Counted from the stretch's first letter, positions 1 to 19,301 are shown. The stretch: 64,000 bases of DNA from an uncultured bacterium (GCA_964482725.1 CAYZYT010000013.1:1465-65464), one strand, 5' to 3'. Made by a program: numbers and translations. The notes: generated from the sequence alone by a model not told the origin.

Positions 1-3000
1 AATCCATGCCTTCCCAGTTCACACCCGCCTTGGAAAGCACCCCGAGATCCGACCAGTTCACGCCCGCCTTAGAAAGAACATCCATGCCAATCCAGTTCAT
101 ACCCGCCTTTGACATCACATTGAGATCCGACCAATTCACACCCGCCTGCGTCAAAACATTCAGGTCTGCCCAGTTCACGCCGGCCTTCGACAGAACATCC
201 ATGCCGGTCCAATTCACTCCAGACCGCGACATCACTTGAAGATCCGTCCAATTGACGCCCGTCTTCGAAAGAACATTCAGGTCCCCCCAATTCACGCCCC
301 CCACGGAGAGTGCCTGCATCCCGCTCCAGTTCACTCCGGTTCTGGACAGAACACCCACATCCAACCAGTTGACACCCGAACTCAACATGGCATTAAGATC
401 GCTCCAATTCAGACCCGCCTGGGTCAGAACGTTGAGATCCCCCCAATTGATCGCTGCTTTTGAAAGAGCCTTGATGTCTTGCCAATTCACGCCCGCGCGA
501 GAAAGCACCTGAATATCGTCCCAGTTCACCCCTCCTTCCGAAAGCGCCTGAATCCCGCTCCAGTTCACGCCCGCCCTCGACAGGACATCCATCCCGCTCC
601 AGTTCACTCCGGCCTTCGAGAGAACATCGATCCCGCTCCAGTTCATACCCGCTTTCGAAAGCACCCCCATATCCGACCAATTCACTCCGGCCCGCGACAT
701 CACATTGAGATCCGACCAATTGATCCCTGTTTCCGAAAGGACATTGAGATCCCCCCAATTCACTCCCGCTTTCGAAAGAACATCGATCCCGATCCAGTTC
801 ACGCCCGCCTTGGAAAGAACTCCCATATCCAGCCAATTCACACCAGCTTTTGACATCACATTGAGATCCGACCAGTTGACACCCCCCCGGGACAGAACAT
901 TCAGATCCGTCCAGTTCACTCCTGCCTTGGAAAGGATCCCCATATCAAGCCAATTCACTCCTGCCTTTGACATCACATTGAGATCCGACCAATTCACGCC
1001 CCCCGAAGAAAGCTCCTGGATCCCATTCCAATTCACCCCCGCCCGCGACATCGTCTGAAGATCTGCCCAATTCAAGCCTGCCCGCGTCAGCACGTTGAGA
1101 TCAGACCAGTTCACGCCAGCCTTAGAAAGGACATTAAGATCCGACCAGTTCACGCCGGACTTCGACAGCGCGCTCATATCCGACCAGTTCAAGCTGGCTT
1201 TGGACATGACATCCAGATCCGACCAGTTCACCCCGGCCCTTGAAAGAACATTCAAATCCGACCAGTTCACCCCAGCCCTTGAAAGAACATCGATGCCGCT
1301 CCAGTTGACTCCCATTTCAGACATCACATTAAGATCCGACCAATTCACGCCCGCTTTAGAAAGAGCGTCGATGCCGTTCCAATTCACACCCGCTTTTGTA
1401 AGTACTCCCATATCGAGCCAGTTGACCCCTGCTTTCGACATCACATTCAAATCGGCCCAGTTCACACCTCCCGCCGAAAGCGCCTGCATCCCGCTCCAAT
1501 TCACACCCGCTTTTGAAAAAACATTGAGATCCGCCCAGTTCACGCCACTTCGCGTGAGAACATTCAAATCCTCCCAATTCAAGTGAGCTTGGGTCAAGAT
1601 ATTAAGATCGGTCCAATTAATGCCCGCCTGGGATAAGGCTCCCATATCCAGCCAGTTCACACCGGCACGCGACAGCACATTTAGATCCGACCAATTCACA
1701 CCCGCTTTCGAAAAGATCCCGATGTCCGTCCAATTCACACCGGCGATCGACATCGCTTGGATCCCACTCCAGTTCACGCCCGCCTGGGAAAAAACATTTA
1801 GATCGGCCCAATTCACGCCGGCTCTTGAAAGAGCATCGATGCCACTCCAATTCACGCCCGCCTTGGAAAGCACCCCCATATCCAACCAATTCACACCCCC
1901 GACTGAAAACGCCTGGATCCCGCTCCAATTCACTTCCGCCCTTGAAAAAATATTAAGATCAGCCCAATTGATGCCCGCTTTGGAGAGAACATCGATCCCG
2001 GTCCAGTTCACGCCCTCTTTGGAAAGCACGCCCATCTCGGTCCAATTGATCCCGGCTTTAGACAATGAATCGATCCCGCTCCAATTCACTCCAATTCCCG
2101 AAAGGACATTGAGGTCCATCCAATTGACACCGGCTCGGGAAAGAGCATCGATCCCGCTCCAGTTGATCGCAACTTTGGACATAACACTAAGATCGATCCA
2201 ATTAACTCCGGCCCGGGAAAGGGCATCAATCCCGCTCCAGTTCATCCCCGCCTTAGAAAGCACACCGATATCCACCCAGTTCACACCGGCTTTGGAAAAA
2301 GAATCGATCCCGTCCCAATTCACACCCGCCTTCGACAATACATTTAAATCGGTCCAATTCACGCCCGATTTTGAAAGAATGTCGAAATCCGCCCAGTTCA
2401 CGCCGGCCGCCGAGAGCGCTTGCATCCCACTCCAGTTCACGCCCGCTTTCGAAAGCACATTAAAATCGGACCAATTCACACCCGCCTTCGAAAGCACATC
2501 GATACCGTTCCAGTTAACACCCGTTTTCGACAACACATTCAAATCGGACCAATTCACGCCCGCTACCGATATCACCTGAAGATCCGTCCAATTCACGCCC
2601 GCTTTGGAAATAGCATCCACACCGCTCCAATTCACACCCGCTTTTGTAAGCGCTCCAATGTCAAGCCAGTTCATACCAGCCTTCGACATCACATTAAGAT
2701 CTGACCAGTTAATCCCCCGGGTGGAAAGGGCATTCACATCGGACCAATTGATCCCGGCGTTCGAGAAAACACTCATATCCATCCAATTCACGCCCGCTTC
2801 CGAAAGAGCATCGATACCGCCCCAATTCACACCGGATTTTGAGAGAACATCGATCCCAATCCAGTTCACGCCCGCTTGCGAAAGAGCATCGATGCCGTCC
2901 CAGTTCACACCCGTGCGCGAGATCACCTGGAGATCCGTCCAGTTCACACCCGTCTTAGAAAGAACGCCCAAATCGGACCAGTTCACGCCCGCTTTAGAAA

Positions 3001-4915
3001 GGGCCTCCATATCGCCCCAGTTGACACCGGTCTGCGTCAACGTACTCAAGTCCGTCCAGTTAACACCCGCACGAGTTAAGACGTTGAGGTCCGCCCAATT
3101 GATCCCCTCTTTCGAGAGAATATCGAGATTTGCCCAGTTCACGTTGCCATCCGAAAGCGCCTGAATCCCGGACCAGTTCACACCGGCAGTCGAAAGGATA
3201 TCAAGATCCGCCCAATTCACTCCCGCTTTCGAAAGCACACTAAAATCGGACCAATTCACTCCCGCTTTCGAAAAGACTCCGATATCCAACCAATTGACTC
3301 CCGCTTGTGACATCACATTCAAACCGTCCCAGTTCACATTCGCGGAACTCATAACACGCATATCGGTCCAGTTCACATTGGCTTTTGTAAGCGCCGCCAA
3401 GTTATCCCAATTAATGGTCTCCGACCAATCGACATGAGCCCCGGTCATCTTCGCGAAATCATCCCAGTTCGCGCCGGCCTTGGACATACGTTGAATGTCT
3501 CCCCAGTTCACTCCCGCCTGGGACAGAACTTCGATATCGTTCCAGTTGATCCCAAGACTTGACATCCGTCCCACATCAAGCCAGTTCGTTCCGGCCACGG
3601 ACAAAGCCTCAATGCCGCTCCAATTCACCGCGGAAGCCGAAAGCGCTTCGATGCCGCTCCAGTTGACTTTCGCTTGACTCATTTTTGAAAGATCGGACCA
3701 ATTGACTCCGGAGACCGATAACAGGCCGAGATTTTCCCAATTGATCCCGGCCTTGGCCAAACGCCCGATATCTTTCCAGTTCACTCCCGCCAGCGTCAGC
3801 TGCTCGAGGTCAAGCCAGTTGATATTGGCCGTGCTAAACGACATGATCTCCGACCAACGGATGCCGGCCCTCGTCAGGGTCCGGACATCTTCCCAATTCA
3901 TACCTTTTGAGGACAACTCCGCGATATCATTCCAATTAACGCGAGCCTCCGACATCGCCTTCAAATCGTCCCAGTTCGCCTTGGCCACCGCGATCAAAAT
4001 ATCCCCGGTTTTTTTGTACAACGTCTCGGATTGGTTAGCTCCGACCGCGGTCTTGATCGCCTGGATATCCGACCAGTTCATGTCTTCCATTTTAGTTTTC
4101 ATCGAAGAAACATCCGTCTTGATCCCGGAAACATCCGAAGCCATCGAACCTGCCAGCGAGGGAGTAAGAACGTAGGTGCTCCTATAATTTGCACCCATAT
4201 AATTGATCTGGGTGGTAACGAGATACGAGGCATTCACATCGCCCGGGATCCAGGTTGACGAGAATACGCCACCACTGACAGCCGTGGCGGTTGTGAAGTT
4301 GAGACCCGAGTACGTACAGTCGCCTGGCACATAATCACCGTCGATCAGGATCTCGCGGGTTTGGTCATTCTCGTACCAGCTACTGACTGTAAAAGTGCCA
4401 TCGCTATAAGTCAGAACAGTCATCACATAGGTATGGTGATCCGCGACATTAAAAGCATCGGACGTGGCGGAGGTAAGGCCGGCGGCGCTCGCCTGCAGCG
4501 TATACATTTCTCCAGACTTATTCATGAACAAACCCTTCCCCGCGAAATCAGCCACGCCCCCGACGGCGTCCATGGTAATGGTACCGCCAAGCGTGGCTCC
4601 GGAGGGGTTGTTCGAAAGAGCCAGCGTAACGGTATTCGTCGCCGTCGCAAATAACTCATCATTCCCGTCCCGAATCTCCACAATGGGGTCTCTCGAGAAC
4701 ACCTGTCCGACAATTTGGTCTCCGGGATGAGCCGTAAAGACGAGGTGGGTGGGCACCTGCACGCTACCTTCCGCGGAAGAAGAACCCTCTCCGTCCCCGC
4801 CGGTGTAAATCGCGGCATTGCCTGTGTTCATTCCCAAAAAGAAAATAGCGGTCACCAGCCAGACCATGCTCCGGTAACCGGGATTTTTTTTATGGAAAAA
4901 GGAGAGGAAGCTCAT
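1..4915 (-). CDS. Giant secreted 13-aa tandem-repeat protein (partial; C-terminus beyond window start). Signal peptide + Ig-like domain + >100 'NWxD[LI]xx[LM]SxAGV' repeats
   Basis: Manual minus-strand translation from ATG at 4915: MSFLSFFHKKNPGYRSMVWLVTAIFFLGMNTGNAAIYTGGDGEGSSSAEGSVQVPTHLVFTAHPGDQIVGQVF... then ...MNWSDIQAIKTAV.., VNWNDIAELSSKGMNWEDVRTLTRAGIRWSEIMSFSTANINWLDLEQLTLAGVNWKDIGRLAKAGINWENLGLLSVSGVNWSDLSKMSQAKVNWSGIEALSASAVNWSGIEALSVAGTNWLDVGRMSSLGINWNDIEVLSQAGVNW... Open continuously down to ~3290 by hand; units sampled at 1-400 give the same frame (SDLGVLSKAGVNW, IGMDVLSKAGVNW, SDLNVMSKAGMNW). Strictly conservative substitutions (L/M, K/R, N/D/Q). Absent from ORF track because no in-window stop. 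Confidence 0.75.
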   Translation of the reverse strand, partial: MSFLSFFHKKNPGYRSMVWLVTAIFFLGMNTGNAAIYTGGDGEGSSSAEGSVQVPTHLVFTAHPGDQIVGQVFSRDPIVEIRDGNDELFATATNTVTLALSNNPSGATLGGTITMDAVGGVADFAGKGLFMNKSGEMYTLQASAAGLTSATSDAFNVADHHTYVMTVLTYSDGTFTVSSWYENDQTREILIDGDYVPGDCTYSGLNFTTATAVSGGVFSSTWIPGDVNASYLVTTQINYMGANYRSTYVLTPSLAGSMASDVSGIKTDVSSMKTKMEDMNWSDIQAIKTAVGANQSETLYKKTGDILIAVAKANWDDLKAMSEARVNWNDIAELSSKGMNWEDVRTLTRAGIRWSEIMSFSTANINWLDLEQLTLAGVNWKDIGRLAKAGINWENLGLLSVSGVNWSDLSKMSQAKVNWSGIEALSASAVNWSGIEALSVAGTNWLDVGRMSSLGINWNDIEVLSQAGVNWGDIQRMSKAGANWDDFAKMTGAHVDWSETINWDNLAALTKANVNWTDMRVMSSANVNWDGLNVMSQAGVNWLDIGVFSKAGVNWSDFSVLSKAGVNWADLDILSTAGVNWSGIQALSDGNVNWANLDILSKEGINWADLNVLTRAGVNWTDLSTLTQTGVNWGDMEALSKAGVNWSDLGVLSKTGVNWTDLQVISRTGVNWDGIDALSQAGVNWIGIDVLSKSGVNWGGIDALSEAGVNWMDMSVFSNAGINWSDVNALSTRGINWSDLNVMSKAGMNWLDIGALTKAGVNWSGVDAISKAGVNWTDLQVISVAGVNWSDLNVLSKTGVNWNGIDVLSKAGVNWSDFNVLSKAGVNWSGMQALSAAGVNWADFDILSKSGVNWTDLNVLSKAGVNWDGIDSFSKAGVNWVDIGVLSKAGMNWSGIDALSRAGVNWIDLSVMSKVAINWSGIDALSRAGVNWMDLNVLSGIGVNWSGIDSLSKAGINWTEMGVLSKEGVNWTGIDVLSKAGINWADLNIFSRAEVNWSGIQAFSVGGVNWLDMGVLSKAGVNWSGIDALSRAGVNWADLNVFSQAGVNWSGIQAMSIAGVNWTDIGIFSKAGVNWSDLNVLSRAGVNWLDMGALSQAGINWTDLNILTQAHLNWEDLNVLTRSGVNWADLNVFSKAGVNWSGMQALSAGGVNWADLNVMSKAGVNWLDMGVLTKAGVNWNGIDALSKAGVNWSDLNVMSEMGVNWSGIDVLSRAGVNWSDLNVLSRAGVNWSDLDVMSKASLNWSDMSALSKSGVNWSDLNVLSKAGVNWSDLNVLTRAGLNWADLQTMSRAGVNWNGIQELSSGGVNWSDLNVMSKAGVNWLDMGILSKAGVNWTDLNVLSRGGVNWSDLNVMSKAGVNWLDMGVLSKAGVNWIGIDVLSKAGVNWGDLNVLSETGINWSDLNVMSRAGVNWSDMGVLSKAGMNWSGIDVLSKAGVNWSGMDVLSRAGVNWSGIQALSEGGVNWDDIQVLSRAGVNWQDIKALSKAAINWGDLNVLTQAGLNWSDLNAMLSSGVNWLDVGVLSRTGVNWSGMQALSVGGVNWGDLNVLSKTGVNWTDLQVMSRSGVNWTGMDVLSKAGVNWADLNVLTQAGVNWSDLNVMSKAGMNWIGMDVLSKAGVNWSDLGVLSKAGVNWEGMD

Positions 4916-6501
4916 GACGCGGTCCTCGCGCAACGCCCGCCATAATCGGCTCCACGCGTCGTGTCGGCCGTGGCGGCTCGATCACGATCTGAAACTGCAA
5001 GCCGCACGACATCTGCGGAAGCAACAGACCAACCGCCGCCTTTCAAGCCACTCCCCACGGCATCGCTCAATCCCGGCCATGATTCATTGGCATCGCCTTG
5101 CGCAGTCAATCCGCCATCTCCGTGAGCTCCGTTAAACCCGCGGCCTTCTGAATTTCCGACAGTCACGACACGCTCCCACACATTTCCGGAAAGGTCCAGA
5201 TTGCCGTAATAACCCGCTCCCGAAGCAACGCGAGTCGTTGTGGAAGTCGTCGCAAAAATACCCACCCGAAGAGGACCGGTCCCCGACTCCGTAACGCCGG
5301 TAAAATTGACATTGCCATATAAAGCATTCGCACCGCTCGTGGTGATCGTTTCCCCGCCGGTCTCGGGCCCCGAAATCCCACTGCCCGCCGGTTTCATAAT
5401 GCTGTCATTGCCCCAGGCATATTCTCCCGCCACGGGAGCATTCCCCGCTCCGCGGCAGGCTTTTTCAAATTCAAGTTCCGTCATAGGTCTCAAACCAGCC
5501 CAGTCCGCATAGGCCGCAAGATCCATCCATGAAAGAAAACCGCAAGCTCGGGGCGAGCGCGTCGTCCGTGCGTCTCCAGACTCCCAAAAGATCGTATTTC
5601 GGCTCACCACGCCATCGCTGTTTTTCCCCGAAGCGGCCGTGATATCGCGCGTGGCCTTCTGAGTCGCGGTCAGTGTATTGAAAAAACCGACCCATTGCCC
5701 TTCCGAGATTTTATATTTCATCAGATAAAAAGGTGCATAACCTTTAGGGAACGCTGCCGCGAGCGGTCCCGCGCCGCCGATGCCACTCGGACCACCGTTC
5801 GACCAAAGGTTCCCCTCGACGGCGTTGATGGTAAGAGCTGCTTCCGAAGTAACCCGGTAAGGGATCGTAGCCCCATCGATCCACGACCCGTCCGTCAAAC
5901 TGTTCGATTCTGTTCCTCCGGAACCAACATAAAACGCCCCTTCAGGGATATAGACCATTTCGATTGCAAAAACATTGACCCGCGTCGACGTCGCACGAGC
6001 ATTCGCGTCACTCACACCATTCGCGGCATAATCCCAAACCAGTTTGATTCCGCTGGTGGAAACAGTCCCCGTCCCCGCACTCGAACGCCGGATAAAACAA
6101 CCCTTAAGATCCCCGGGGACCACCAGATCGATAGTCGTCCCGGTGCCGCGCTCAAAACCGGCGGGATTGGCGCCAGCAGTTTTGAGGATCGCGTGATGCC
6201 AAGAGGATCCGGAATCCGTGGAATATTTGACGAAAATCCAAACCGCATCATAATTGGCGGCATCGTACCAAGAGTTGTCCCACGAAATATTAAGACCGAT
6301 TTTTGCGGTATGGGTTCCGCTATCCTGATCCGCTACGACCACTCTGGAAACGCGTACATTATTGGCGAGAGCCGAAAGAGGAAAGGAGAGAACAAGGAGC
6401 GCTAAGGCCAAGGATATCTTCCAATTTCTTCCCCTGTCTAACTCCTTGCAGCAGAAGAGACTACCACCACTTACTTGTCTTAAAAAAGCTCTAAGCATCA
6501 A
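4912..6501 (-). CDS. FGE-sulfatase / DUF323 (SUMF1-like, C-type-lectin fold) domain protein with N-terminal signal/TM segment
   Basis: 529 aa ORF. Motifs VYIPEGAFYVGSGG, LMKYKISEGQWVGFF, GFLSWMDLAAYADWAGLRPMTELEFEKACRGAG, YAWGN, GNVWERV, GGGWSV match the formylglycine-generating-enzyme family. Stop TGA overlaps the start ATG of the downstream giant gene (ATGA). Confidence 0.8.
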   Translation of the reverse strand: MMLRAFLRQVSGGSLFCCKELDRGRNWKISLALALLVLSFPLSALANNVRVSRVVVADQDSGTHTAKIGLNISWDNSWYDAANYDAVWIFVKYSTDSGSSWHHAILKTAGANPAGFERGTGTTIDLVVPGDLKGCFIRRSSAGTGTVSTSGIKLVWDYAANGVSDANARATSTRVNVFAIEMVYIPEGAFYVGSGGTESNSLTDGSWIDGATIPYRVTSEAALTINAVEGNLWSNGGPSGIGGAGPLAAAFPKGYAPFYLMKYKISEGQWVGFFNTLTATQKATRDITAASGKNSDGVVSRNTIFWESGDARTTRSPRACGFLSWMDLAAYADWAGLRPMTELEFEKACRGAGNAPVAGEYAWGNDSIMKPAGSGISGPETGGETITTSGANALYGNVNFTGVTESGTGPLRVGIFATTSTTTRVASGAGYYGNLDLSGNVWERVVTVGNSEGRGFNGAHGDGGLTAQGDANESWPGLSDAVGSGLKGGGWSVASADVVRLAVSDRDRAATADTTRGADYGGRCARTAS

Positions 6502-6753: not shown

Positions 6754-7680
6754 TTACATCTCTTTTTGCATTTTCTCGAAATCTCTCTTGAGAGGCTCAT
6801 CCGGCGCTACTCGAGACAATTGATTCAAATCCCAGAGCCGCATCCTGATTTTCTTAGACTCTTCACTCGGCGGTTTTAGATTCAGATATTGTTGATAATA
6901 GGTCCTCGCCTCGATTTGTTTCGCCAAATGATAGTCGTAAATAATAGCAAGATTATGATAAGCCCATGCCAATTTCGGATTCAGATGGAGGGCTTTTTTA
7001 TACTGACCGATCGCATCTTCGTATCGCCCAAGATCGTAATACACATTGCCAAGATCAAAACAGGCTCCGACCAGCTGATCCTTGAGGCTCAAATTTTCGG
7101 AATTCACCCCGGCCACCATCCCCACCGAATTTTTTACGGACTCTTCATTCTTTTTCGCAACGTCAATGATCCGGCTACGTTCCGGCTCCAGAACCGACTG
7201 GTTCAAAAGCCCTTTTAATTTTTCATTGGTGTCGTTCAACTCTTGATTTTTTGCTGTGATCTCCTGACGCTGGACCGCCGTATCCAGGCTGCCGCCTTCC
7301 AGCTTCGCGATCTCTTTGCGCGATGCCTCGAGCTCAGACTTCAGCGTTTCGACCTGGGAGCTGATCTCACGCTCTTTCGCACCCCCACCGCTCTGCGTTT
7401 GCTGGGCCTGTAGCGCAAGGTCGTTCTTCTCCGCGGTAAGCTTCTCATAAGAATCCTGGAGATCTCGCATATTCTGGCGAACCCTGCGGTTTTCCTTCAA
7501 AGTTTCATTCAACGTATATAATATTTTCTCGACATTTTGTCCTTCCGGAGTCGAGGGGCCGACAGAAGCAGGGTCCTTCTCCTTGGCCGCAAACGCCAAA
7601 TTCGCATTGAACCCCAAGGACAAAACCAACACGCCCAGCCCGAAAATCTGAAAACTTTTAGGGAAGAAATTCCTCGTCAT
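6754..7680 (-). CDS. Secreted coiled-coil + C-terminal TPR protein (possible secretin-associated / pilotin-like)
   Basis: 308 aa; N-terminal signal peptide; long heptad-rich region (LKSELEASRKEIAKLEG...); C-terminal TPR (YYDLGRYEDAIGQYKKALHLNP, AWAYHNLAIIY). Start overlaps secretin stop (ATGA). Confidence 0.6.
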   Translation of the reverse strand: MTRNFFPKSFQIFGLGVLVLSLGFNANLAFAAKEKDPASVGPSTPEGQNVEKILYTLNETLKENRRVRQNMRDLQDSYEKLTAEKNDLALQAQQTQSGGGAKEREISSQVETLKSELEASRKEIAKLEGGSLDTAVQRQEITAKNQELNDTNEKLKGLLNQSVLEPERSRIIDVAKKNEESVKNSVGMVAGVNSENLSLKDQLVGACFDLGNVYYDLGRYEDAIGQYKKALHLNPKLAWAYHNLAIIYDYHLAKQIEARTYYQQYLNLKPPSEESKKIRMRLWDLNQLSRVAPDEPLKRDFEKMQKEM

Positions 7681-9413
7681 CGCTGCGCCCTTTTAATGTC
7701 TGGTATTTTTTGCAACAAAGTCGCCGACCCATCCATGAGCGGTGGGGAGTAATCTCCACCCGTTCCTTGCTGCTTCCCCACATCAAAAGCCCCAATCCCA
7801 AGCATGCTGAGCGTATCCGTCGGCATACTTCGCGCCGACCGCGACGTAGGATTTCTGGTTTTGATCGCGATCGGCTCATCGAGATAATCTTCTTCTCCCG
7901 TCACAATGTGCGGAGTGATAATAACCGCGATCTCCGTTTTTTTGAAGCTCTCATTACGCGCCTTGAACATATGCCCCACGACCGGAATGTCCATCAAATA
8001 AGGGACTCCCTGATTACTCCGGGTCTGTTCATCCCGAATGAGCCCTCCCAACACCACCGAATTCCCATCTTGGATGATGACGGTCGATTCCACGAAAGTG
8101 GTATTCACTTTTGGGATCACGTTCTTAGTGGGCGTGACCAACTCACCGATCTGGCTTGAAATCTCCGGCCGGATCTTCATGGTCACAAAACCCTTGTCAT
8201 TAATGACGGGCGTCACCACAAGCACAAGACCGATGTCAATAAAACGGATGTCTTCACTGACGGAAACATTATTCCCGGTCCCCGTCGACGTGGTCACCAC
8301 ATACGGGATCCGGTCTCCGATGTTGATCTTTGCCTCCTCGCGGTCCATGATCATGACGCGCGGGTTCGCAAGCAACTTCGTATCCTCGATCTCCTTGACC
8401 GCTTTCAAATTAGCCGCGATCTCATCTGTCGCAAAATTCCCGACCACGATCTTTCCGAATTTCCCAAGGTTGGAGGCCGTAGTCTCCATGGGAAACGAAC
8501 TTGCAATGCTCGAATTGTCGAGCCTCCGAAAGACCTTTTGCCAATCGATCCCCCAATTGTATTTAGGATTGAGCGTGAGCTGCAGGATTCTTGTTTCGAC
8601 CATCACGGCCCGGGTCTGCCGGTCGAGCGCCTTGACAAGCCGGACCGCTTGCTCCATCCGTTCAGGATACGCGCTGATCATGATCTGGTTCGACCTGACA
8701 TCCGCCGCGACCGTCCCGACCCCTTTCCCGTCGATCTGCGGTTTCAGCTGCGCCGCAATGTCCTCCGCTTTCGCAAATTGAAGCTTGATCACTTGCGTGG
8801 CAATGTTGTTCTCCACTTGATCCAAAATGGTGTTCATCTGCATCAACTTCTCCGCAGTGTCGATCATCACCACCGTCCCTGCGTCTTCGTCGATAATGAC
8901 TTTCCCGATCGCGCTCTGAATGGATTGCAACGTCGCAAGCACGTAGCTGGGTTTGGCGGTTTTCAGCGTACGGATCGAGATCTTCCGGTTGTCATTGAAA
9001 GTTTTACCGTGCGTTAACGCGTACTCATCTTCGGTCATGATGAGAATGATGCCGTTCCGGATCTGGTAGGCAAGCTGGTTGGAAATGACCAGAATATCCA
9101 ACGCATCTTTGATCTTCACGTTTTTCAGCAACAAAGTCGAACGTCCCTGGACATTGCGACTTGTCACAATATTAAGGCCCCCTTGAACTGCGATAAACTT
9201 GAAAACATCAATGACATTGATATCGCGAAGATCGAGGAAGATCGTTTTTTCAAGGCCGGATTGGGGATCCTTGGCGGCGGCCACTGTCCCCGGAGCTTTG
9301 TCTTCTGGAAAAGCGCTCGGAGCCACAGGGAAACTCGCCGCGATCATGACGGCCAGCAGCACCTTGCCCAGCTTAGAAAATTTCTCTCGCTTTCCCATAG
9401 TCGCGTTTCTCAT
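7677..9413 (-). CDS. Secretin (GspD/PilQ family outer-membrane channel)
   Basis: C-terminal secretin domain: LLANPRVMIMDREEAKINIGDRIPYVVTT..., VTPVINDKGFVTMKIRPEISS, VPYLMDIPVVGHMFKARNESFKKTEIAVIITPHIV. N0/N1-like domains upstream. Start chosen at the MRNATMGKREK methionine just after the upstream stop. Confidence 0.85.
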   Translation of the reverse strand: MRNATMGKREKFSKLGKVLLAVMIAASFPVAPSAFPEDKAPGTVAAAKDPQSGLEKTIFLDLRDINVIDVFKFIAVQGGLNIVTSRNVQGRSTLLLKNVKIKDALDILVISNQLAYQIRNGIILIMTEDEYALTHGKTFNDNRKISIRTLKTAKPSYVLATLQSIQSAIGKVIIDEDAGTVVMIDTAEKLMQMNTILDQVENNIATQVIKLQFAKAEDIAAQLKPQIDGKGVGTVAADVRSNQIMISAYPERMEQAVRLVKALDRQTRAVMVETRILQLTLNPKYNWGIDWQKVFRRLDNSSIASSFPMETTASNLGKFGKIVVGNFATDEIAANLKAVKEIEDTKLLANPRVMIMDREEAKINIGDRIPYVVTTSTGTGNNVSVSEDIRFIDIGLVLVVTPVINDKGFVTMKIRPEISSQIGELVTPTKNVIPKVNTTFVESTVIIQDGNSVVLGGLIRDEQTRSNQGVPYLMDIPVVGHMFKARNESFKKTEIAVIITPHIVTGEEDYLDEPIAIKTRNPTSRSARSMPTDTLSMLGIGAFDVGKQQGTGGDYSPPLMDGSATLLQKIPDIKRAQR

Positions 9414-9414
9414 T

Positions 9415-10092
9415 TTAGTGAATTTCCACCGTATCTTCGCCCGATGAGAGGACCACATGATCCTCAAAGATCTTTGAGACTTTTAGAAGCCCGACCGGAT
9501 CTCCTTCGCGAAGGAACGTCGTGATCCCCTTCTGAACGTCCTCAATCATGCAAAAAACCTTTTTCGGATCCGCTGGATTATAAGAGATCCCGGTCAGCTT
9601 CAGGGTCTTCGTCATGTCAACGAGCTTTGAAGACTGCTCCTTTTCAAGCTTCTGGGCATCCTCCGCACGCTTGTTATACGGCATGAACATCTTTCCAAGA
9701 TCCCAGCTTTCGATCGGCTCAACTTCCTTGGCCGGCTCACTGACCGGCGGAAGCTCCAGCATCTTGGGCTCGGAATTTTCAATCGCCCCGATAACATCCT
9801 TCTTGAGATCCATCGCTCCCAACAAAAGGACCGTAATGAACGCCACCGCCAACAGGGTGACCAAGTACCGTAAGATCCGGTTCAATTCTTTAACGCCAAA
9901 GGAAGTCCTGATCCGTTCCAGGGCATCGTTCGATGTTTTAAGAAATCGGTCTTTCAGCGCCCCTGCAGAAAATCGAGCGCCCTGCTGAACTTTTTTAGCC
10001 CCGGCATCAATATCTTTTTGATGAGCGCTCGGCTCCTCAATGAGATCCAGAAGCCGCTTTTCCGGCGTTAATGAGGAATCTGGCTGAGCCAT
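9415..10092 (-). CDS. Bitopic membrane protein, GspB/ExeB-like (hypothetical)
   Basis: 225 aa; cytoplasmic N-terminus, one TM helix (LRYLVTLLAVAFITVLLLGA), periplasmic C-terminal domain. Sits between the ExeA-like ATPase and the secretin with overlapping ends. Confidence 0.45.
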   Translation of the reverse strand: MAQPDSSLTPEKRLLDLIEEPSAHQKDIDAGAKKVQQGARFSAGALKDRFLKTSNDALERIRTSFGVKELNRILRYLVTLLAVAFITVLLLGAMDLKKDVIGAIENSEPKMLELPPVSEPAKEVEPIESWDLGKMFMPYNKRAEDAQKLEKEQSSKLVDMTKTLKLTGISYNPADPKKVFCMIEDVQKGITTFLREGDPVGLLKVSKIFEDHVVLSSGEDTVEIH

Positions 10093-10940
10093 CCGGCACG
10101 CATTTCCTCGGAAACGATTTCCTCGATAATCTCCTCATCTACGATCCACTTCCGTTTCATCACGAGCTGTTTCAAAGACCGGTGACAAAGCATGGTGATC
10201 TTTCGGGGATACCCCTGGGAGATCTTATGGATCATTTCTATAGCGTCGTCCTGAAAAAGCCGGACGTTCGAGCAATAATTCGCCTGCCGGATACGAAAAA
10301 GGATCATCTCCCGGGTCTCGTCCAAACTCAAAGGGTTCAAAGTGTATTTAAAACTGATCCTATCCATAAAATTCGGGATCTTCATGATCTTGGAGTGAAG
10401 CTCCAACTGTCCGAAAAGAGCCAGCTGCAAGAGCTTCGTGTCGTTGGTCTCATAATTCAGGATCACACGCAACATTTCCATCGAAGCTTCATTGAGCTTT
10501 TGCGCTTCGTCCACAATAAGCACCACGGTCTTATTGCCGATAACGGTTTTCTCATAAAGGAACTTCTCCACCGCCTCTTTGAGGTCCATCACGCTCGGAC
10601 GGCTCCCCTCCATGCGACTGCCGGTATATTGATCCACATTGATGGAAAAGTTCCGGACCAGGGAATAAAGAAATTCGTATTCGTTCTCAAAACAAGGGTC
10701 CAAGACATAATGGACAATAAAGTCCCCGCGCTCCTTGAGCGATTGGATCAACTTGCGGGAAAGCGTGGTCTTTCCGGTCCCGACATCCCCCAACACCACG
10801 GACAATCCGCGCCGCAAACGCAACTCGATCAGGACGTTCGTAAGCGTCGCCTGGTGCCCTTGCGACAAGTAGAGGAATTCAGGATCCGGGCTTGTCGAAA
10901 ACGGCTCCTTTTCGAATCCCAGCATGCGGTAATAGCTCAT
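10068..10940 (-). CDS. ExeA/GspA/MshM-family AAA+ ATPase (secretin assembly factor)
   Basis: MSYYRMLGFEKEPFSTSPDPEFLYLSQGHQATLTNVLIELRLRRGLSVVLGDVGTGKTTL (Walker A), VVLIVDEAQ (Walker B). Typical ExeA N-terminus. The ORF track extends further upstream (11012); internal Met taken as start. Confidence 0.8.
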   Translation of the reverse strand: MSYYRMLGFEKEPFSTSPDPEFLYLSQGHQATLTNVLIELRLRRGLSVVLGDVGTGKTTLSRKLIQSLKERGDFIVHYVLDPCFENEYEFLYSLVRNFSINVDQYTGSRMEGSRPSVMDLKEAVEKFLYEKTVIGNKTVVLIVDEAQKLNEASMEMLRVILNYETNDTKLLQLALFGQLELHSKIMKIPNFMDRISFKYTLNPLSLDETREMILFRIRQANYCSNVRLFQDDAIEMIHKISQGYPRKITMLCHRSLKQLVMKRKWIVDEEIIEEIVSEEMRAGWLSQIPH

Positions 10941-11118
10941 GGATCTCCTCGTCTTGACTTTGACACGTCCAAAGACAATTCGCCTGGGGACTTTAGTGCC
11001 AAAAAACCTCACACTATGTTTCGGCTGTTCCTCTGAAATCTATAGGGGTCCCTTTAAGAGGGGGCGGGGTTCACCGGAAGAGGGGGGACGCTTACAAAAC
11101 CATCCTTGGAAAATATTC

Positions 11119-13734: not shown

Positions 13735-14175
13735 TCAATAAGAAATCCCATCCGGCAATTCGTTCTTATCATTCGCTTGATAAGGAAAATAGGTTTTTAG
13801 CTTCTCTCCGATACGAACCACCGCTTCCGAAATACCCTCGGCAAACTTATTCTCCTTGAAATGCTCTTGCATGATCTGGACCACATCGTTCCAGAATCCT
13901 TCAGGAACTTTTTCATTGATCCCGACATCCCCCAACACCGCGAACTTCTTGTTCCTGGTCGCAAGGAATATCAGGACTCCGTTCCTTTGGGCGGTCTTCG
14001 TCATCCCGATCTTCTGAAAGACTCTCTGGGCGTGACCGTACACAGGCTCGTGGGCGTTATATTCCAGATGCACGCGGATCTCTCCGGATGTGTTTTTTTC
14101 CGCATCCTGGACTGCGGCAAGAATCTGTTTTTTCTCTTTTCCCGACAAAAAGAACATCGGATAAGTTATACGCAT
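13735..14175 (-). CDS. TPM-domain protein (TLP18.3/Psb32/MOLO-1 phosphatase fold)
   Basis: 146 aa; GEIRVHLEY..., VLIFLATRNKKFAVLGDVGINEKV pattern typical of the TPM domain. Adjacent to LemA. Confidence 0.65.
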   Translation of the reverse strand: MRITYPMFFLSGKEKKQILAAVQDAEKNTSGEIRVHLEYNAHEPVYGHAQRVFQKIGMTKTAQRNGVLIFLATRNKKFAVLGDVGINEKVPEGFWNDVVQIMQEHFKENKFAEGISEAVVRIGEKLKTYFPYQANDKNELPDGISY

Positions 14176-14265
14176 AATATCACCAGCCTCCTGACGCTCC
14201 GCCGCCCTGATCGCTATCTATTTTAAAAGCCAAAGAAATCAGGACTGCTTCGCTTTCCAAATAAA

Positions 14266-15018
14266 TCACCAGCCTCCTGACGCTCCGCCGCCGCCGAAAC
14301 CGCCGCCGCCTCCGCTAAACCCGCCAAAGCTACCGCCTCCGCTCCGGAATCCCCCCCCCATCGGCATAAAAAAACCGCCACGCCCGCGACGGCCTCCGAT
14401 GTTATTCGAATTTGAACGGACAAAAAAGTGGAAGAGAAAAAAGACGCCAAAAAGAACGATCAATCTCGCTAAAGCATCCGGATTGTCTTTCCGTGGGACA
14501 CCCTTAAATTCGCCTTGCGTGGCCTGCATGATCGCGGTCGTACCGGCCAGGATCCCTCCCGAATAATCACCTTTACGGAAATAAGGCGCAACCACCCGGC
14601 CGATGATCTGCCCCGCCAAAGCGTCCGGCAAAACACCTTCCAACCCGTAGCCGACTTCGATGCGCATTTTGCGATCATTTTTGAAGATGAGAAAGATCAC
14701 GCCGTTATTCTTATTCTTCTGTCCAGCCTTCCAGGCCTCGGCGAGGCGCATTGAGAAATCTTCGAGCGAATCCCCTTCCAGGGATGGAAAAGTAGCCACC
14801 ACGACCTGGGTGGAGGTTTTTTCCTCGAAGACGCGAAGGTTTGTTTCGAGAGTCGATCGATCGGGCGGAGATAAAAGCCCCGCTCGATCGGTCACATAGC
14901 CGTCAGCACGTTTCGGGACTTCGAGGGCAGAAAGAACGGTAGGGAATAAAACAAAAAAAAGAAAAAGGAGACAGGCTGCTTTTTCAAAGAATGGAGCCTG
15001 TCCCCTTTTCTTCATCAC
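14266..15018 (-). CDS. TPM-domain protein (YgcG-like) with C-terminal TM and Gly-rich tail
   Basis: 250 aa; signal peptide, TPM core (VVVATFPSLEGDSLEDFSMRLAEAWKAGQKNKNNGVIFLIFKNDRKMRIEVGYGLEGVLPDA), TM, GGGFGGGG tail. Confidence 0.75.
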   Translation of the reverse strand: MMKKRGQAPFFEKAACLLFLFFVLFPTVLSALEVPKRADGYVTDRAGLLSPPDRSTLETNLRVFEEKTSTQVVVATFPSLEGDSLEDFSMRLAEAWKAGQKNKNNGVIFLIFKNDRKMRIEVGYGLEGVLPDALAGQIIGRVVAPYFRKGDYSGGILAGTTAIMQATQGEFKGVPRKDNPDALARLIVLFGVFFLFHFFVRSNSNNIGGRRGRGGFFMPMGGGFRSGGGSFGGFSGGGGGFGGGGASGGW

Positions 15019-15021
15019 TGA

Positions 15022-15648
15022 TTAAAACTTGACCTGCGGAGCGGTCTTGGCGTCCTGATCGGCCTGAAAATAGGCTTTGTTCTTAAAACCCATGGCGCCG
15101 GCAACGATTACATTCGGGAAACGACGGCGGAAGGCGTTAAAATCCTGGGCCGCTTCATTGAAACGCTTGCGTTCGACCGTGATACGATTCTCGGTGCCTT
15201 CCAGCTGGGTTTGAAGCATGAGAAAATTCTGACTCGCCTTAAGATCCGGATACTTCTCCACCACAACAAGAAGCCGGCTCAGGGCTGAAGTCAGACCCGT
15301 CTGGGCTTCCTGGAATTTTGCGAGCTGTTCGGGATCATTGATCGGCGAGGGTGAGGTCCCCATTTGTGTGATCTTGGAGCGAGCGTTCACAACGTTCAGA
15401 AGTGTTTCTTTTTCATGGGCCGCGTAGCCTTTCACCGTTTCGACCAAGTTCGGCACAAGATCCAGACGCCGCTGATAGACGTTTTCCACCTGAGCCCAGG
15501 AACTGGTGACGCCTTCTTCTTTGGTCACAAGATTGTTATAAACGCCGCCGAACACGAGCGCCCCCAAAAACACGATAAGAACGATAACACCCAGCGTGAT
15601 GAACAAAGCCTTTTTCATGAACAAACCTCCTTGATGGTGGGGTGGCAA
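15022..15648 (-). CDS. lemA: LemA family protein
   Basis: N-terminal TM, then VTSSWAQVENVYQRRLDLVPNLVETVKGYAAHEKETL, characteristic of LemA. Confidence 0.8.
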   Translation of the reverse strand: MPPHHQGGLFMKKALFITLGVIVLIVFLGALVFGGVYNNLVTKEEGVTSSWAQVENVYQRRLDLVPNLVETVKGYAAHEKETLLNVVNARSKITQMGTSPSPINDPEQLAKFQEAQTGLTSALSRLLVVVEKYPDLKASQNFLMLQTQLEGTENRITVERKRFNEAAQDFNAFRRRFPNVIVAGAMGFKNKAYFQADQDAKTAPQVKF

Positions 15649-15727
15649 AAAGCAACGGACGTATTATAGCCTCTCGTAGAAATTCCTGGCAAACAATTAA
15701 AGCAGGAAGAAATTTCGGGGAAGCGTT

Positions 15728-17473: not shown

Positions 17474-17545
17474 GCATTTCTAAAGTTTTTTTTGCTCAGA
17501 AACCCTTATGCCCCAGAAAAACTTCGTCTCTCTTCAATATATACC

Positions 17546-18667: not shown

Positions 18668-18687
18668 GAGAGCTTTGGGATATCTTC

Positions 18688-19086
18688 TCAGGATTTCGTT
18701 TTTTGAGAAAGGGTTACAAGCCATTTCTGGAACGGAGGATACTCGCGCAGAGGCTTCAAGTCCGGATCTTTCTCGAGATGTCTCAGATCCGTAAACCCCA
18801 GGCGAACCGCTTGCCGAAGCGCCGTCAGGGCCTTCGCCGTATAGCCGGAAAGAACATAGCTGCAGGCAAGGTTGTAATGAACGACCGGATCGTCTTGACA
18901 GAGAAAAGCCAGCCGCTTGTCGATTTCAAGGCCCTTTTCAAAAAGACCCCGGCGCGTATAGGCCTCCGCGAGCGGAGCCAGGGCATCGATGTAGTTAGGA
19001 CGGTGTTTGAGGACGCCTTCGAGGAATGAGATCTCAAAATCCAGATCGTTCGATTTCATAGTCTCAATGCCTATCAATTTTAACAA
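18688..19086 (-). CDS. TPR-repeat protein
   Basis: 132 aa with TPR-like helices (PLAEAYTRRGLFEKGLEIDKR, HYNLACSYVLSGYTAKALTALRQAV). Confidence 0.6.
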   Translation of the reverse strand: MLKLIGIETMKSNDLDFEISFLEGVLKHRPNYIDALAPLAEAYTRRGLFEKGLEIDKRLAFLCQDDPVVHYNLACSYVLSGYTAKALTALRQAVRLGFTDLRHLEKDPDLKPLREYPPFQKWLVTLSQKTKS

Positions 19087-19089
19087 AGT

Positions 19090-19210
19090 TGAAATTGGGG
19101 CTGTCCCAATTCAGATCAATCGAAGCAAATTTGAGATCGGGGCTGCCCTGATTGCCATACCAGAAAAAGAAAACACAAATCAGGGCTGTCCCCACTACCC
19201 CTGATGTAAA
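19090..19210. promoter_or_regulatory. Three tandem small stem-loops sharing a GGGGCTGYCCC core (~42 bp spacing)
   Basis: aattggggctgtcccaatt; atcggggctgccctgat; atcagggctgtcccc...ccctgat. Located between the PEBP-gene stop and the TPR-gene start. Confidence 0.4.
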
Positions 19211-19301
19211 AAAATCAAAAGTTGGGATGGCTGCATGATACCTTATCCAGCACCGTTTTCCATTTGTTTTTAGGGGTTACCGTCTCAAGGAACGAGGCGC
19301 C

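Follow-up and report, generated by a model that had tools for sequence, protein, structure and literature searches.

The window, by which we mean the whole 64,000-nucleotide stretch of DNA that we analyzed (GCA_964482725.1 CAYZYT010000013.1:1465-65464), opens inside a gene for a huge protein. The gene lies on the minus strand and runs off the left edge, so that only its first 4.9 kb are in view, and most of what can be seen encodes more than 100 copies of a 13-residue unit, N-W-x-D-[LI]-x-V-[LM]-S-x-A-G-V. Upstream of it lie genes for an FGE-fold protein, a TPR protein and a secretin. The initial annotation, made from the sequence alone, had reported the repeat but not its strand. The parts of the array gene, all on the minus strand, are as follows.

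2 to 4915, minus strand: the 5' part (1638 codons) of the array gene, with its ATG at 4915-4913, GAGGA 7 nt upstream, and an ATGA start/stop overlap with the upstream gene.
4808 to 4915, minus strand: N-terminal signal-like segment, MSFLSFFHKKNPGYRSMVWLVTAIFFLGMNTGNA|AIYTGG, with a basic n-region, a hydrophobic core and small residues before the conserved AIYTGG; it was read by eye, and the same layout occurs in the related proteins P0015, P0123, P0124 and P0125.
4436 to 4753, minus strand: first Ig-like β-sandwich domain (predicted; residues 55-160), collinear with residues 68-180 of P0015.
4151 to 4435, minus strand: second, less conserved, predicted β-rich domain (residues 161-255), aligned to P0015 residues 181-287.
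3977 to 4111, minus strand: predicted helical leader containing an isolated first NW unit (4040-4078); helices 301-347 of the P0015 model map here, and relatives carry 15-residue "TDTINWTDI" leader repeats at this position.
3470 to 3976, minus strand: proximal array of 13 regular 13-residue units before the hinge.
3380 to 3469, minus strand: conserved "hinge," NWDDFAKMTGAHVDWSETINWDNLAALTKA, which contains the only irregular (6-residue) spacing in the array; the same motif, A[YK]M[ST]G[AS]GVNW[DT]ETINWDNLAELTTA, occurs in P0001, P0121, P0122, P0123, P0015 and P0125.
20 to 3412, minus strand: distal array of 87 uninterrupted, in-register 13-residue units, continuing beyond the window (bases 2-19 start the next unit).

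Upstream, and also on the minus strand, are the following genes. Two other loci help to describe them: L001, a separate short-read assembly that is 100% identical to the window over the part it covers, including about 2.5 kb of the array, and L004, a related locus that extends downstream of the array gene.

4912 to 6501, minus strand: FGE-sulfatase-fold protein with a signal-like N terminus, translationally coupled to the array gene and probably noncatalytic.
6754 to 7680, minus strand: TPR protein (coiled-coil N-terminal half, TPR C-terminal half by Pfam), resembling a secretin pilotin or PilW/Tgl accessory on weak NCBIfam hits.
7677 to 9467, minus strand: secretin (PilQ/GspD-like outer membrane channel), the true start of which is probably internal; gene callers on the same DNA give 573-578 aa.
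9415 to 10092, minus strand: 225-aa protein with one TM-like segment, no Pfam hit and, on weak evidence, a GspC-like C terminus (NCBIfam GspC_delta, 22 bits, far below its cutoff of 150).
10068 to 11012, minus strand: AAA_22 ATPase (Pfam, 74.6 bits), whose best NCBIfam match is the XrtA/PEP-CTERM-associated ATPase model (TIGR03015, 166 bits against a cutoff of 324); any ExeA/GspA/MshM-like role is our inference. The gene is present in the window and in L001 but not in L004.

The first issue was whether the repeat is real, and the observation made in the initial annotation holds. Tandem Repeats Finder reports a period of 39 and its multiples over 2..3338. Only one frame is open, for 1660 codons from 4981 down to the window edge, with 1638 residues from the ATG. 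Anchoring on Trp gives 103 units, and the Trp-to-Trp spacing is exactly 13 in 101 of 102 intervals, the exception being a 6-residue half unit at about 3400. The regular array runs from 3976 down to 20, and the frame is still open at base 2. The conserved positions are those listed in the initial annotation: N1 in 101 of 103 units, W2 in 103, D4 in 68 (G in 29), L/I/M5 in 93, L/M8 in 89, S9 in 86, A11 in 72, G12 in 88 and V/I13 in 90. All 103 units are distinct at the DNA level, with mean pairwise identities of 0.60 for nucleotides and 0.52 for amino acids. Identity at codon positions 1, 2 and 3 is 0.667, 0.775 and 0.44, respectively, a pattern that confirms the frame, and identical residues share the same codon in only 53% of cases. 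This is therefore an old, protein-level repeat under purifying selection, not an assembly artefact (as the initial annotation had also argued from divergence) or a recent expansion. Attempts to recover the rest of the gene were unsuccessful: an exact-protein lookup gave only short-read contigs that end inside the array, and an exact-match scan of metagenome contigs with the left edge of the window gave 0 hits. A promoter and terminator scan of the operon gave counts that do not exceed shuffled expectation.

Does the unit belong to a known family? Pfam, NCBIfam, PDB sequences, PHROGs and Foldseek give nothing credible. The initial annotation had named a clear match to a repeat family of known structure as the result that would overturn it, and we found none. 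Of the named repeats it had set aside on period (pentapeptide, LRR, RTX, PbH1, TPR and ice nucleation), only Pentapeptide_4 appears for the whole protein, at 16.5 bits against a cutoff of 38, and LRR_10 appears weakly in 10 of 118 five-unit segments (best E=0.013). The one above-threshold hit is to Pfam Lysostaphin_N (PF25533), itself a 13-residue repeat (AEVETSKAPVENT), which scores 83.7 bits against a cutoff of 60 for the 1638-residue protein; the same family is preassigned to P0001, P0121 and P0124. Controls show this hit to be an artefact of shared period plus an S-K-A-x-V coincidence. Forty native units score only 34 bits, about 0.85 bits per unit, against about 11 for a lysostaphin-type repeat (about 13-fold lower), so the score only accumulates with length. 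Permuting S-K-A to A-S-K abolishes the hit, whereas replacing all the hallmark residues (N, W, D, L, L, G) raises it to 80.4 bits, and random column permutations of the same array give 28-61-bit hits to unrelated families. An Ntox33 Pfam hit was rejected on the same grounds. The lysostaphin propeptide lacks the N, W, D, L or G hallmarks and is Pro- and Glu-rich, whereas this array is hydrophobic and virtually Pro-free. Nor is there an M23 peptidase in the visible 1638 residues, and the complete relatives P0015, P0125 and P0001 end in a helical tail instead. Literature searches on the motif, on 13-residue repeats, on FGE-fold proteins together with secretins and TPR proteins, and on the Velamenicoccus proteome found nothing relevant; no paper found mentions the repeat.

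We then looked for relatives. Only about 17 array proteins turn up in a word-indexed search of 5.8 billion clusters, and an exhaustive profile search of 1.84 billion representatives gives 34 clusters at E<=1e-30. A genome scan returning 8-kb blocks found at least 61 loci with at least 10 units and 4124 units in all. Almost all are labeled Omnitrophota or automatically labeled Planctomycetales, so the repeat is essentially confined to Candidatus Omnitrophota, where more than 55 species-level genomes carry it with 23 to more than 204 units; four arrays fill whole 8-kb blocks with at least 204 units. The closest relative is the Omnitrophota MAG ELA295. One locus from Metamycoplasmataceae was excluded as an unrelated 39-nt repeat read in a chance frame. 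The complete relatives P0015, P0125 and P0001 share the layout seen in the window and end in a helical tail of about 140-290 residues with a terminal motif, [VI][VI][VI]K[TS]W[FY]E, that is conserved in 20 species. PHROG searches with the nonrepeat parts gave nothing significant, the tail hitting fibritin or tail proteins only at E about 3e-3 to 6e-3. Short versions of the array (8-15 units) sit between extracellular-type domains (Glug, M26_N, CARDB) in other Omnitrophota proteins.

The neighborhood is conserved too. The gene order is secretin, TPR protein, FGE-fold protein, array protein and then a protein with a signal and a C-terminal TM anchor, the last known only from relatives because the window lacks the 3' end of the array gene and everything downstream. 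The FGE-fold gene lies directly upstream in 17 loci, each from a different species, the TM-anchored gene is present downstream in 20 loci, the secretin and TPR genes in at least 15, and an F-type ATPase in 15; wherever downstream DNA was recovered, an ATPase operon of noncanonical order follows. The FGE fold is supported by Pfam PF03781 (58.8 bits against a cutoff of 23.3), with only distant similarity to solved FGEs (E about 5e-5). Catalysis by FGE depends on a cysteine pair, yet although 107 columns are conserved in at least 13 of 14 orthologues, no cysteine column exceeds 4/14. The secretin scores 160.3 bits for Secretin and 72 for Secretin_N, with STN weak at 20 bits. PilQ (222.5, cutoff 284), GspD (215, cutoff 351) and MshL (161, cutoff 250) all fall below their cutoffs, as do the subfamily models for the pilus-motor genes of L004, and so do not decide between T4P and T2SS. 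In L004 the array gene is followed by a 435-aa gene, the ATPase operon (alpha-epsilon-c-?-b/delta-gamma-beta, with divergent gamma, epsilon and delta subunits and no subunit a) and then PilB/PilC/pilin-like genes. Seymour et al. 2023 (PMC10066038) describe T4aP genes co-located with "symbiotic" F-type ATPase genes in every class of the phylum and propose a role in host attachment. Co-location of T4aP-like genes and a putatively non-respiratory F-type ATPase within 10 kb is found in relatives; in the window itself only the secretin side is visible.

What might such a protein look like? An AlphaFold model of P0015 gives two tandem β-sandwiches, the first at pLDDT 80-90 and the second all-β at 55-70, and Foldseek matches to the N-terminal domains include Fab-like, complement MG and adhesin-extender domains. 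Pfam itself does not detect the two domains, and about 130 database hits cover only the first of them. For the array we used non-overlapping blocks of units. Two AlphaFold runs place one short helix of 6-9 residues in every unit, but at low confidence (pLDDT 37 for 16 units and 40-50 for the array inside P0015) and with no confident packing, and Foldseek with the 16-unit model found no match (best E=0.7). Raw mutual information between units was confounded by species composition; against a within-locus shuffle null, the remaining inter-unit signals are weak. Within units the strongest couplings are 6-10, 4-7, 7-10, 3-6, 7-11 and 5-9, which is i+3/i+4 spacing and agrees with one helix per unit, and they include E6-K10, K6-E10 and R6-E10 pairs, although part of the covariation reflects unit subtypes inherited by block duplication (D6-D10, for example, is enriched 3.2-fold). 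Pro occurs 0.0075 times per unit and Cys 0.005. A 2- or 3-unit super-repeat is significant in only 8/34 and 5/34 long arrays, respectively, and so reflects lineage-specific block duplication rather than a universal structural period.

Several known systems come to mind. Giant surface adhesins with Ig-like extender regions (the Marinomonas ice-binding adhesin, whose extender, PDB 6xi3, is among the Foldseek matches, and LapA/SiiE-type proteins) are also very long secreted proteins with tandem repeats as an extender and repeat numbers that vary between strains or species. Their extender unit, however, is a β-sandwich of roughly 100 residues and their export is by type I secretion with a C-terminal RTX signal; here the unit is 13 residues and probably helical, the N terminus looks like a Sec signal, the C terminus is a helical tail with a VVIKTWFE motif, and the neighbor is a secretin. 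Mycoplasma mobile, a small, host-associated bacterium with a non-respiratory F-type ATPase, builds huge filamentous gliding "legs" (Gli349/Gli521) that work with a type-2 F1-like ATPase. Seymour et al. place the Omnitrophota ATPase alpha subunit with the Mycoplasma gliding ATPases (PMC10066038), and the alpha and beta subunits next to the array gene score 396 and 412 bits on the MMOB1660 and MMOB1670 models, below their cutoffs. There is no sequence similarity, Omnitrophota are treated here as diderm, and the module includes a secretin; with any coupling between the ATPase and the fiber hypothetical, this is an analogy only. Ice-nucleation proteins likewise have extremely long, strictly periodic arrays of a short unit (16 residues, dozens of copies) in an envelope-associated protein, with length variation and purifying selection, but with a different period, a TxT-type motif absent here and a β-solenoid fold, whereas the evidence here favors one helix per unit; there is no Pfam match. 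Type-4a pilus and type II secretion modules (PilQ-Tgl/PilW, GspD-GspC-GspA/B) share the upstream secretin, TPR accessory, weakly GspC-like protein and AAA_22 ATPase, with PilB/PilC/pilin-like genes nearby in L004, but no T4P or T2SS cluster is known to include a giant 13-residue-repeat protein, an FGE-fold protein and a tail-anchored periplasmic protein between the secretin and motor genes.

Our preferred reading, to which we give a probability of roughly 0.55, is that this single-copy chromosomal gene of a Candidatus Omnitrophota bacterium encodes a length-variable surface fiber or stalk. The analysis itself establishes the layout (signal-like N terminus, two Ig-like β-sandwiches, helical leader, at least 103 units and one hinge), the tail of complete relatives, the lack of a curated family, the variation in unit number and the conserved gene order. 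The rest we infer from sequence, prediction and gene context. Each unit would form one capped two-turn α-helix (positions about 4-11) followed by a G-[VI]-N-W turn, making the array a long regular rod or stalk whose length is set by unit number, although rod geometry, oligomeric state and even the helical state are not established. The protein would cross the inner membrane by Sec and then be exported or displayed through the co-encoded secretin (an inference from gene order alone), helped by the putatively noncatalytic FGE-fold protein and the membrane-anchored downstream protein. It would serve as a spacer or attachment fiber in contact with host or prey cells, as part of the type-4-pilus/"symbiotic ATPase" apparatus proposed for the phylum. 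The interpretation in the initial annotation is thus partly supported. Its claims that the unit fits no usual repeat and that the N terminus carries a signal (a signal-like segment, read by eye) and an Ig-like domain are supported (there are two such domains, as modeled in a collinear relative); a solenoid with a novel fold is not shown; and the surface fiber or adhesin remains an inference, strengthened by the secretin/type-4-pilus neighborhood, which it had not seen.

Other readings have to be weighed against this. The protein could be exported by Sec and yet stay within the envelope, as a tether or ruler between the inner membrane-anchored downstream protein and the secretin/FGE-fold complex. 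The anchored and signal-bearing neighbors are consistent with this, the conserved C-terminal motif suggests docking to a partner, and FGE-fold proteins such as GldK/PorK build periplasmic rings in type IX secretion. We consider it unlikely, since arrays of 100 to more than 200 units would, on any regular geometry, be far longer than a periplasm is wide, and since the Ig-like tip domains and the use of the same unit between extracellular-type domains point outward. Somewhat less likely still is that the low-confidence helices are wrong and the array is a β-rich solenoid or an obligate trimeric β-fiber (Asp-box-like hairpins, or a triple β-spiral as in viral fibers). About 40% of each unit is hydrophobic, which is high for a thin monomeric rod, and helical tails and leaders are typical of trimeric fibers. 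Weak BNR/Asp-box hits (PF02012, PF15899; best E=1e-4) recur in 40 of 118 five-unit segments because S-D-A-G-I-N-W resembles S-x-D-x-G-x-T-W. The match, however, covers only D-x-G-x-[N]-W and applies to the acidic unit variant, the Asp position (unit position 10) being D in only 17% of units family-wide and mostly K or R in the window; moreover, covariation peaks at i+3/i+4 and not i+2, both AlphaFold runs agree on one helix per unit, and Foldseek finds no β-solenoid match.

We also considered, and think improbable, a tandem helix-hairpin-helix-like array acting as a ComEA-like DNA receptor beside the PilQ-type secretin, secretin plus HhH protein being the DNA-uptake pairing. The idea came from the only PDB sequence hit, the HhH-containing N-terminal domain of DMC1 (DIDLLQKHGINVADIKKLKSVGI), which has the same 13-residue spacing and 10/23 identities but an insignificant E=1.2; a short helix (predicted here) followed by a G-hydrophobic-(G/N) hairpin is also the form of helix-hairpin-helix motifs such as that of the Rad51/DMC1 N-terminal domain, and G12 and N1 could occupy the two left-handed hairpin positions. 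No HHH family is listed at E<=10 for the whole protein or among the 25 most recurrent weak hits in 118 segments, and Foldseek with the low-confidence 16-unit model gives no HhH hit. The arrays are acidic (net charge about -1.1 per unit family-wide and -0.4 in the window), which disfavors DNA binding, and they are continuous, without the connector helices of (HhH)2 domains (tandem HhH arrays such as topoisomerase V offer another comparison). A lysostaphin-type propeptide is refuted at the sequence level by the controls above, and a disordered, low-complexity spacer, which low pLDDT could indicate, is very doubtful given an invariant W, conserved L/I/V/M and almost no Pro, the opposite of a disordered linker. 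Noncoding satellite DNA, a pseudogene or an assembly artefact, prompted by short-read assemblies that break inside the array and by several spurious ORFs on the other strand, is excluded by the single 1660-codon frame, the codon-position pattern, the identical independent assembly and an architecture conserved across more than 55 species. At the speculative end, and unlikely on present evidence though not excluded, the array protein could be the working filament of an undescribed envelope-spanning machine peculiar to Omnitrophota, in which a PilQ-type secretin, a noncatalytic FGE-fold protein, a tail-anchored periplasmic protein and the putatively non-respiratory F-type ATPase together display, and possibly move, a single-polypeptide fiber of a new 13-residue helical fold, tuned from about 20 to more than 200 units. 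It would be used for attachment to, or gliding on, host cells: a diderm analogue of the ATPase-driven "legs" of Mycoplasma.

There are lessons here for protein science. The 13-residue unit is among the shortest strictly periodic, strongly conserved repeats, and with no family assignment and no confident AlphaFold model, it is a good target for structure determination. Because the arrays break short-read assemblies, protein databases under-represent the family (the 17 or so clusters against more than 55 species found by DNA scan), and the Lysostaphin_N model of Pfam produces false-positive annotations on these proteins.

Omnitrophota are widespread, mostly uncultured, ultra-small bacteria thought to live attached to or preying on other cells. 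The only locus so far proposed for that contact is the type-4-pilus/"symbiotic ATPase" cluster. To the middle of that locus, our analysis adds three conserved, unannotated genes, those for the FGE-fold protein, the giant array protein and a membrane-anchored protein, the largest of which is a plausible physical link to the host and makes the question of how these cells attach one that can be put to concrete test.

Our starting point was the array itself, for which Tandem Repeats Finder reports a period of 39 and its multiples (78, 117, 156 and 195) from base 2 to about 3340. The repeat consensus CCAATTCAC is the reverse complement of GTG AAT TGG (V-N-W), so the coding strand is minus. Of the three minus-strand frames only one is open, and it runs for 1660 codons from the stop at 4982-4984 down to the edge of the window. 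The first ATG is at 4915, with GAGGA lying 7 nt upstream, and this ATG overlaps the TGA stop of the upstream ORF as ATGA. Anchoring on tryptophan gave us 103 units, in which the W-W spacing is exactly 13 in 101 of 102 intervals, the single exception being 6. The conserved positions listed in the initial annotation were reproduced: N1 in 101/103 units, W2 in 103/103, D4 in 68 (G in 29), L/I/M5 in 93, L/M8 in 89, S9 in 86, A11 in 72, G12 in 88 and V/I13 in 90. All 103 DNA units differ, with a mean pairwise identity of 0.60 at the nucleotide level and 0.52 at the amino acid level. Among the 87 uniform units, identity at codon positions 1/2/3 is 0.667/0.775/0.44, and identical residues use the same codon only 53% of the time. 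An independent short-read assembly is 100% identical over the part it covers. The repeat is therefore real, ancient and selected at the protein level, and the observation made in the initial annotation stands. Over the array (window 1-4000) the GC skew is much more negative (-0.33 and -0.27) than over the rest of the window (about -0.02 to -0.16), which presumably reflects the repeated codon set on the minus strand; the plus strand also shows spurious long ORFs inside the array, for example 1620-2579 (319 aa).

The visible part of the protein, encoded on the minus strand and numbered from the ATG at 4915, is laid out as follows.

aa 1-36: a signal-like segment (basic n-region, hydrophobic core, GNA|AIYTGG)
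aa 55-160 and 161-255: two beta-rich domains
aa about 269-313: a helical leader with one isolated unit
aa 314-482: 13 regular units
aa 483-512: a conserved hinge, NWDDFAKMTGAHVDWSETINWDNLAALTKA, holding the 6-residue half unit
aa 502-1632: 87 uninterrupted units, then the start of another at the window edge

Pfam finds nothing in the first 300 aa. This region is, however, collinear, at 41% identity overall, with a complete relative from the protein databases (P0015), of which AlphaFold models residues 68-180 as a beta-sandwich at pLDDT 80-90 and residues 181-287 as a second, weaker beta domain. Foldseek matches this pair to tandem Ig-like modules, namely Fab-like pairs, complement MG domains and the extender of a large adhesin, 6xi3, with E about 1e-4. 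The roughly 130 database hits that cover only about 6% of the query are to this domain, in Big_1/Invasin_D3-type multidomain proteins.

Was the repeat already known? The full protein scores 83.7 bits on PF25533 Lysostaphin_N, against a cutoff of 60, and 56 bits on Ntox33. The propeptide of lysostaphin is a 13-residue repeat (AEVETSKAPVENT), and a clear match to a named repeat family with known structure was the outcome that the initial annotation had set as fatal to its claim of an undescribed repeat, so we ran a series of controls.

Control sequences scored against Pfam
40 native units: 34 bits on PF25533, about 0.85 bits per unit
Lysostaphin-type repeat (positive control): 156.9 bits for 14 units
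S-K-A permuted to A-S-K in every unit: PF25533 hit removed
N, W, D, L, L, G replaced, S-K-A-x-V kept: 80.4 bits, a higher score
Four random column permutations of the same array: 28-61 bits on unrelated families (pre-PUA_NIP7 61, HetE-N 42, ssDBP 34, Erg28 31)

Whole-sequence scores on such arrays are therefore accumulation artefacts, and the PF25533 hit rests only on the shared period plus S-K-A-x-V. The same family is pre-assigned in the public collection to several of the relatives (P0001, P0121 and P0124), which the controls show to be a false positive caused by the shared 13-residue period; the BNR_6 assignment on P0121 is probably the same kind of artefact.

Other libraries took us no further. 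NCBIfam and PDB sequences give nothing for the whole protein, PHROGs give nothing, and a profile of 16 units against PDB sequences gives only the N-terminal domain of DMC1, at E=1.2. To avoid score accumulation, we scanned 118 independent five-unit segments from many species against Pfam at E<=10. The most recurrent weak hits are BNR/Asp-box (40/118, best E=1e-4), RecG_dom3_C (31), PBCV1_P7 (22), BNR_6 (19), Ntox33 (18) and Lysostaphin_N (10), and none is an HHH family. The Asp-box resemblance (S-D-A-G-I-N-W against S-x-D-x-G-x-T-W) applies only to units with D at position 10, which are 17% family-wide and few in this window. In the literature, two papers on Omnitrophota long proteins and the phylum-wide genomic study do not mention the repeat, and searches on the motif and on 13-residue repeats found nothing. 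We conclude that the repeat is undescribed, although the sequences do sit in databases as "hypothetical protein".

The search for relatives began with proteins. A word-indexed search of 5.8 billion clusters found P0001 and P0015 with the whole protein as query and 16 proteins with the array alone, about 17 array proteins in total, whereas an exhaustive profile search of 1.84 billion representatives found 34 at E<=1e-30 and 155 at E<=1e-10, many of them fragments. The relatives fall into two groups. The first, group A, has the architecture seen in the window: P0015 with 23 NW units, P0124 with 31, P0125 and P0123 with 33, P0122 with 42, P0121 with 74 and P0001 with 78. In the second, group B (P0126-P0133, and the genomic loci L010 and L042), arrays of 8-15 of the same units are embedded between Glug/M26_N-type N-terminal regions and Ig/CARDB-type C-terminal regions. 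Three of these eight proteins are labeled Omnitrophota/Omnitrophica by their source. The unit is therefore a portable module.

We then scanned one genome per species for four N-W codon pairs at 39-nt spacing, which returned at least 120 blocks of 8 kb. Of the 120 blocks taken, 61 loci hold at least 10 units, giving 4124 units in all. By record title they are about 25 Candidatus Omnitrophota/Omnitrophica, about 24 auto-labeled "uncultured Planctomycetales/Planctomycetia" with the same synteny, five unclassified "bacterium" records and five with other labels. The last comprise three short all-array contigs that are probably mis-binned, one 10-unit Flavobacteriales locus and one false positive, L123 (CBDHHR010000655.1, labeled Metamycoplasmataceae), where an unrelated tandem repeat of period 39 nt, read in one frame as ...CNWCKDFFFQCYL..., was picked up by the NW-spacing pattern; it is not the same family. 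Four blocks are array from end to end, with at least 204 units: L019 (from a complete 3.36-Mb Omnitrophota chromosome), L037, L114 and L124. Short-read assemblies systematically break inside the array, as in loci L001-L003 and in the contig pairs L013+L018, L044+L096, L084+L087 and L100+L117. Contig pairs from single MAGs show one gene broken by assembly; L117 (N-terminus plus 48 units) and L100 (162 units plus C-terminus), for example, together give at least 210 units. As a result the gene is split or truncated in most MAGs and protein databases strongly under-represent the family, with about 17 clusters in the word-indexed protein search against more than 55 species found by the DNA scan.

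The nearest relative of the window is the Omnitrophota MAG ELA295 (locus L093), about 82% identical at the nucleotide level and with the N-terminal region at 71% amino acid identity. The rest of the window is housekeeping (RuvB, FtsH, TilS, LptF/G, DsbD, CysN/C, sulfite reductase), and the gene is therefore chromosomal. A sulfur-assimilation cluster (51601-55096 and 47726-48865, 58023-59348) encodes a sulfite/nitrite reductase, a CysN/CysC-like fusion and two Cys/Met PLP enzymes; it is ordinary metabolism but helps identify the capabilities of the organism. A ShlB/FhaC-type two-partner-secretion transporter (POTRA_2 + ShlB; 15728-17473, minus strand) has no obvious TpsA substrate gene beside it, its neighbors being a DHH-family protein and a LemA/TPM pair. 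A protein with a phage tail Collar domain (85 bits; 21447-22133, minus strand), with unannotated ORFs at 20597-21289 and 22237-22743, sits among housekeeping genes, and no other phage genes were seen nearby.

Relatives also show what lies beyond the array. Complete genes have a tail of about 250-290 aa or, in one subgroup, about 140-165 aa, which AlphaFold models as long helices at pLDDT 60-74. Twenty species end with [VI][VI][VI]K[TS]W[FY]E followed by one to a few mostly acidic residues. The hinge motif is shared by all group A proteins.

Upstream of the array gene, and all on the minus strand of the window, lie the following genes.

10068-11012: AAA_22 ATPase
9415-10092: 225-aa protein with a weak GspC-like C-terminus
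7677-9467: secretin (Secretin 160 bits; PilQ and GspD models both below cutoff)
6754-7680: TPR protein
4912-6501: FGE-sulfatase-fold protein, whose stop overlaps the start of the array gene

Across the loci we retrieved, the FGE-fold gene is immediately upstream of the array gene in 17, at 40-82% amino acid identity, and so is better conserved than the N-terminus of the array protein itself, which is 27-37% identical apart from L093. A gene of about 435 aa follows the array gene in 20 loci; it encodes a signal peptide, a helix-rich middle and a C-terminal TM segment, and has no Pfam or NCBIfam hit. An F-type ATPase operon follows that in 15 loci, and secretin and TPR genes precede the module in at least 15. 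In one relative's locus, L004, the ATPase operon (13933-19336) has the unusual order alpha-epsilon-c-?-b/delta-gamma-beta, the unidentified gene encoding 75 aa. The gamma, epsilon and delta subunits score far below their NCBIfam cutoffs, no subunit a was detected, and the alpha and beta subunits also hit the Mycoplasma gliding ATPase models below cutoff. PilB/GspE-, PilC/GspF- and pilin-like genes follow directly. This matches the "symbiotic" F-type ATPase/T4aP locus that Seymour et al. (PMC10066038) found in every Omnitrophota class and proposed for attachment to, and motility on, host cells, in a paper that never uses the words "repeat", "PilQ" or "hypothetical". The FGE-fold protein has 107 columns conserved across 14 species but no conserved cysteine. 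Canonical formylglycine generation is therefore unlikely, and a structural or binding role seems more likely. FGE folds serve such roles in the type IX secretion proteins GldK and PorK.

What does a single unit look like? AlphaFold on 16 units, with a 15-row in-register alignment, gave pLDDT 37 and pTM 0.21, with one 6-residue helix per unit, and Foldseek with this 16-unit model finds nothing better than E=0.7. Within full-length P0015 each unit again holds one predicted 8-9-residue helix, at pLDDT 40-50. As an independent check we used the 4124 units with a within-locus shuffle null. The strongest intra-unit couplings are 6-10 (i+4), 4-7 (i+3), 7-10, 3-6, 7-11, 5-9, 6-9 and 3-7, and they include the opposite-charge pairs E6-K10, K6-E10 and R6-E10, but also D6-D10, which reflects unit subtypes. 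By inference, the conservation pattern fits standard helix capping: N-cap-type residues (S, T, D, N) make up 60% of position 3, W2 and V7 could form a hydrophobic staple, G12 could be a Schellman C-cap with L8 contacting I/V13, and N1 would sit in the turn. Pro and Cys are essentially absent. Higher-order periodicity is not universal, a 2-unit period being significant in 8/34 long arrays, including weakly in the window (z=3.1), and a 3-unit period in 5/34. The 13-mer is therefore the structural unit.

The architecture, the selection pattern, the restriction to one lineage, the length variation of at least 9-fold and the fixed gene order are what our analysis establishes. Sec export, passage or display through the adjacent secretin, a rod or stalk function in which unit number sets the reach, and a role in host or prey contact are all inferred. 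If one unit contributes roughly 0.5-1 nm, which is an assumption and not a measurement, 100-200 units would span tens to about 200 nm, comparable with the roughly 0.2-um cells reported for the phylum (PMC10066038). The use of the same unit in short runs between extracellular-type domains in other Omnitrophota proteins supports the idea of a spacer.

Other readings have to be weighed against this one. The protein could be a periplasmic scaffold, or a beta or trimeric fiber, the latter to be set against the helix predicted in each unit, at low confidence, and the i+3/i+4 couplings. An HhH-like DNA binder is suggested by the DMC1 match at E=1.2, but no HHH family is among the most recurrent weak hits in the 118 segments. 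The controls on PF25533 speak against a lysostaphin-like spacer, a disordered spacer being its variant, and the independent assembly, identical over the part it covers, and the codon-position pattern speak against an artefact.

The interpretation offered in the initial annotation, a surface or extracellular fiber or adhesin with a novel fold, is thus supported only in part. The repeat is undescribed and the protein is very probably a fibrous exported protein, but neither the novel fold nor the adhesin function is demonstrated. Giant tandem-repeat envelope proteins are already known, and this one differs in being built from an undescribed 13-residue unit. What our work mainly adds is context: the gene is a core part of a conserved five-gene module inside the pilus/ATPase symbiosis locus of Omnitrophota.
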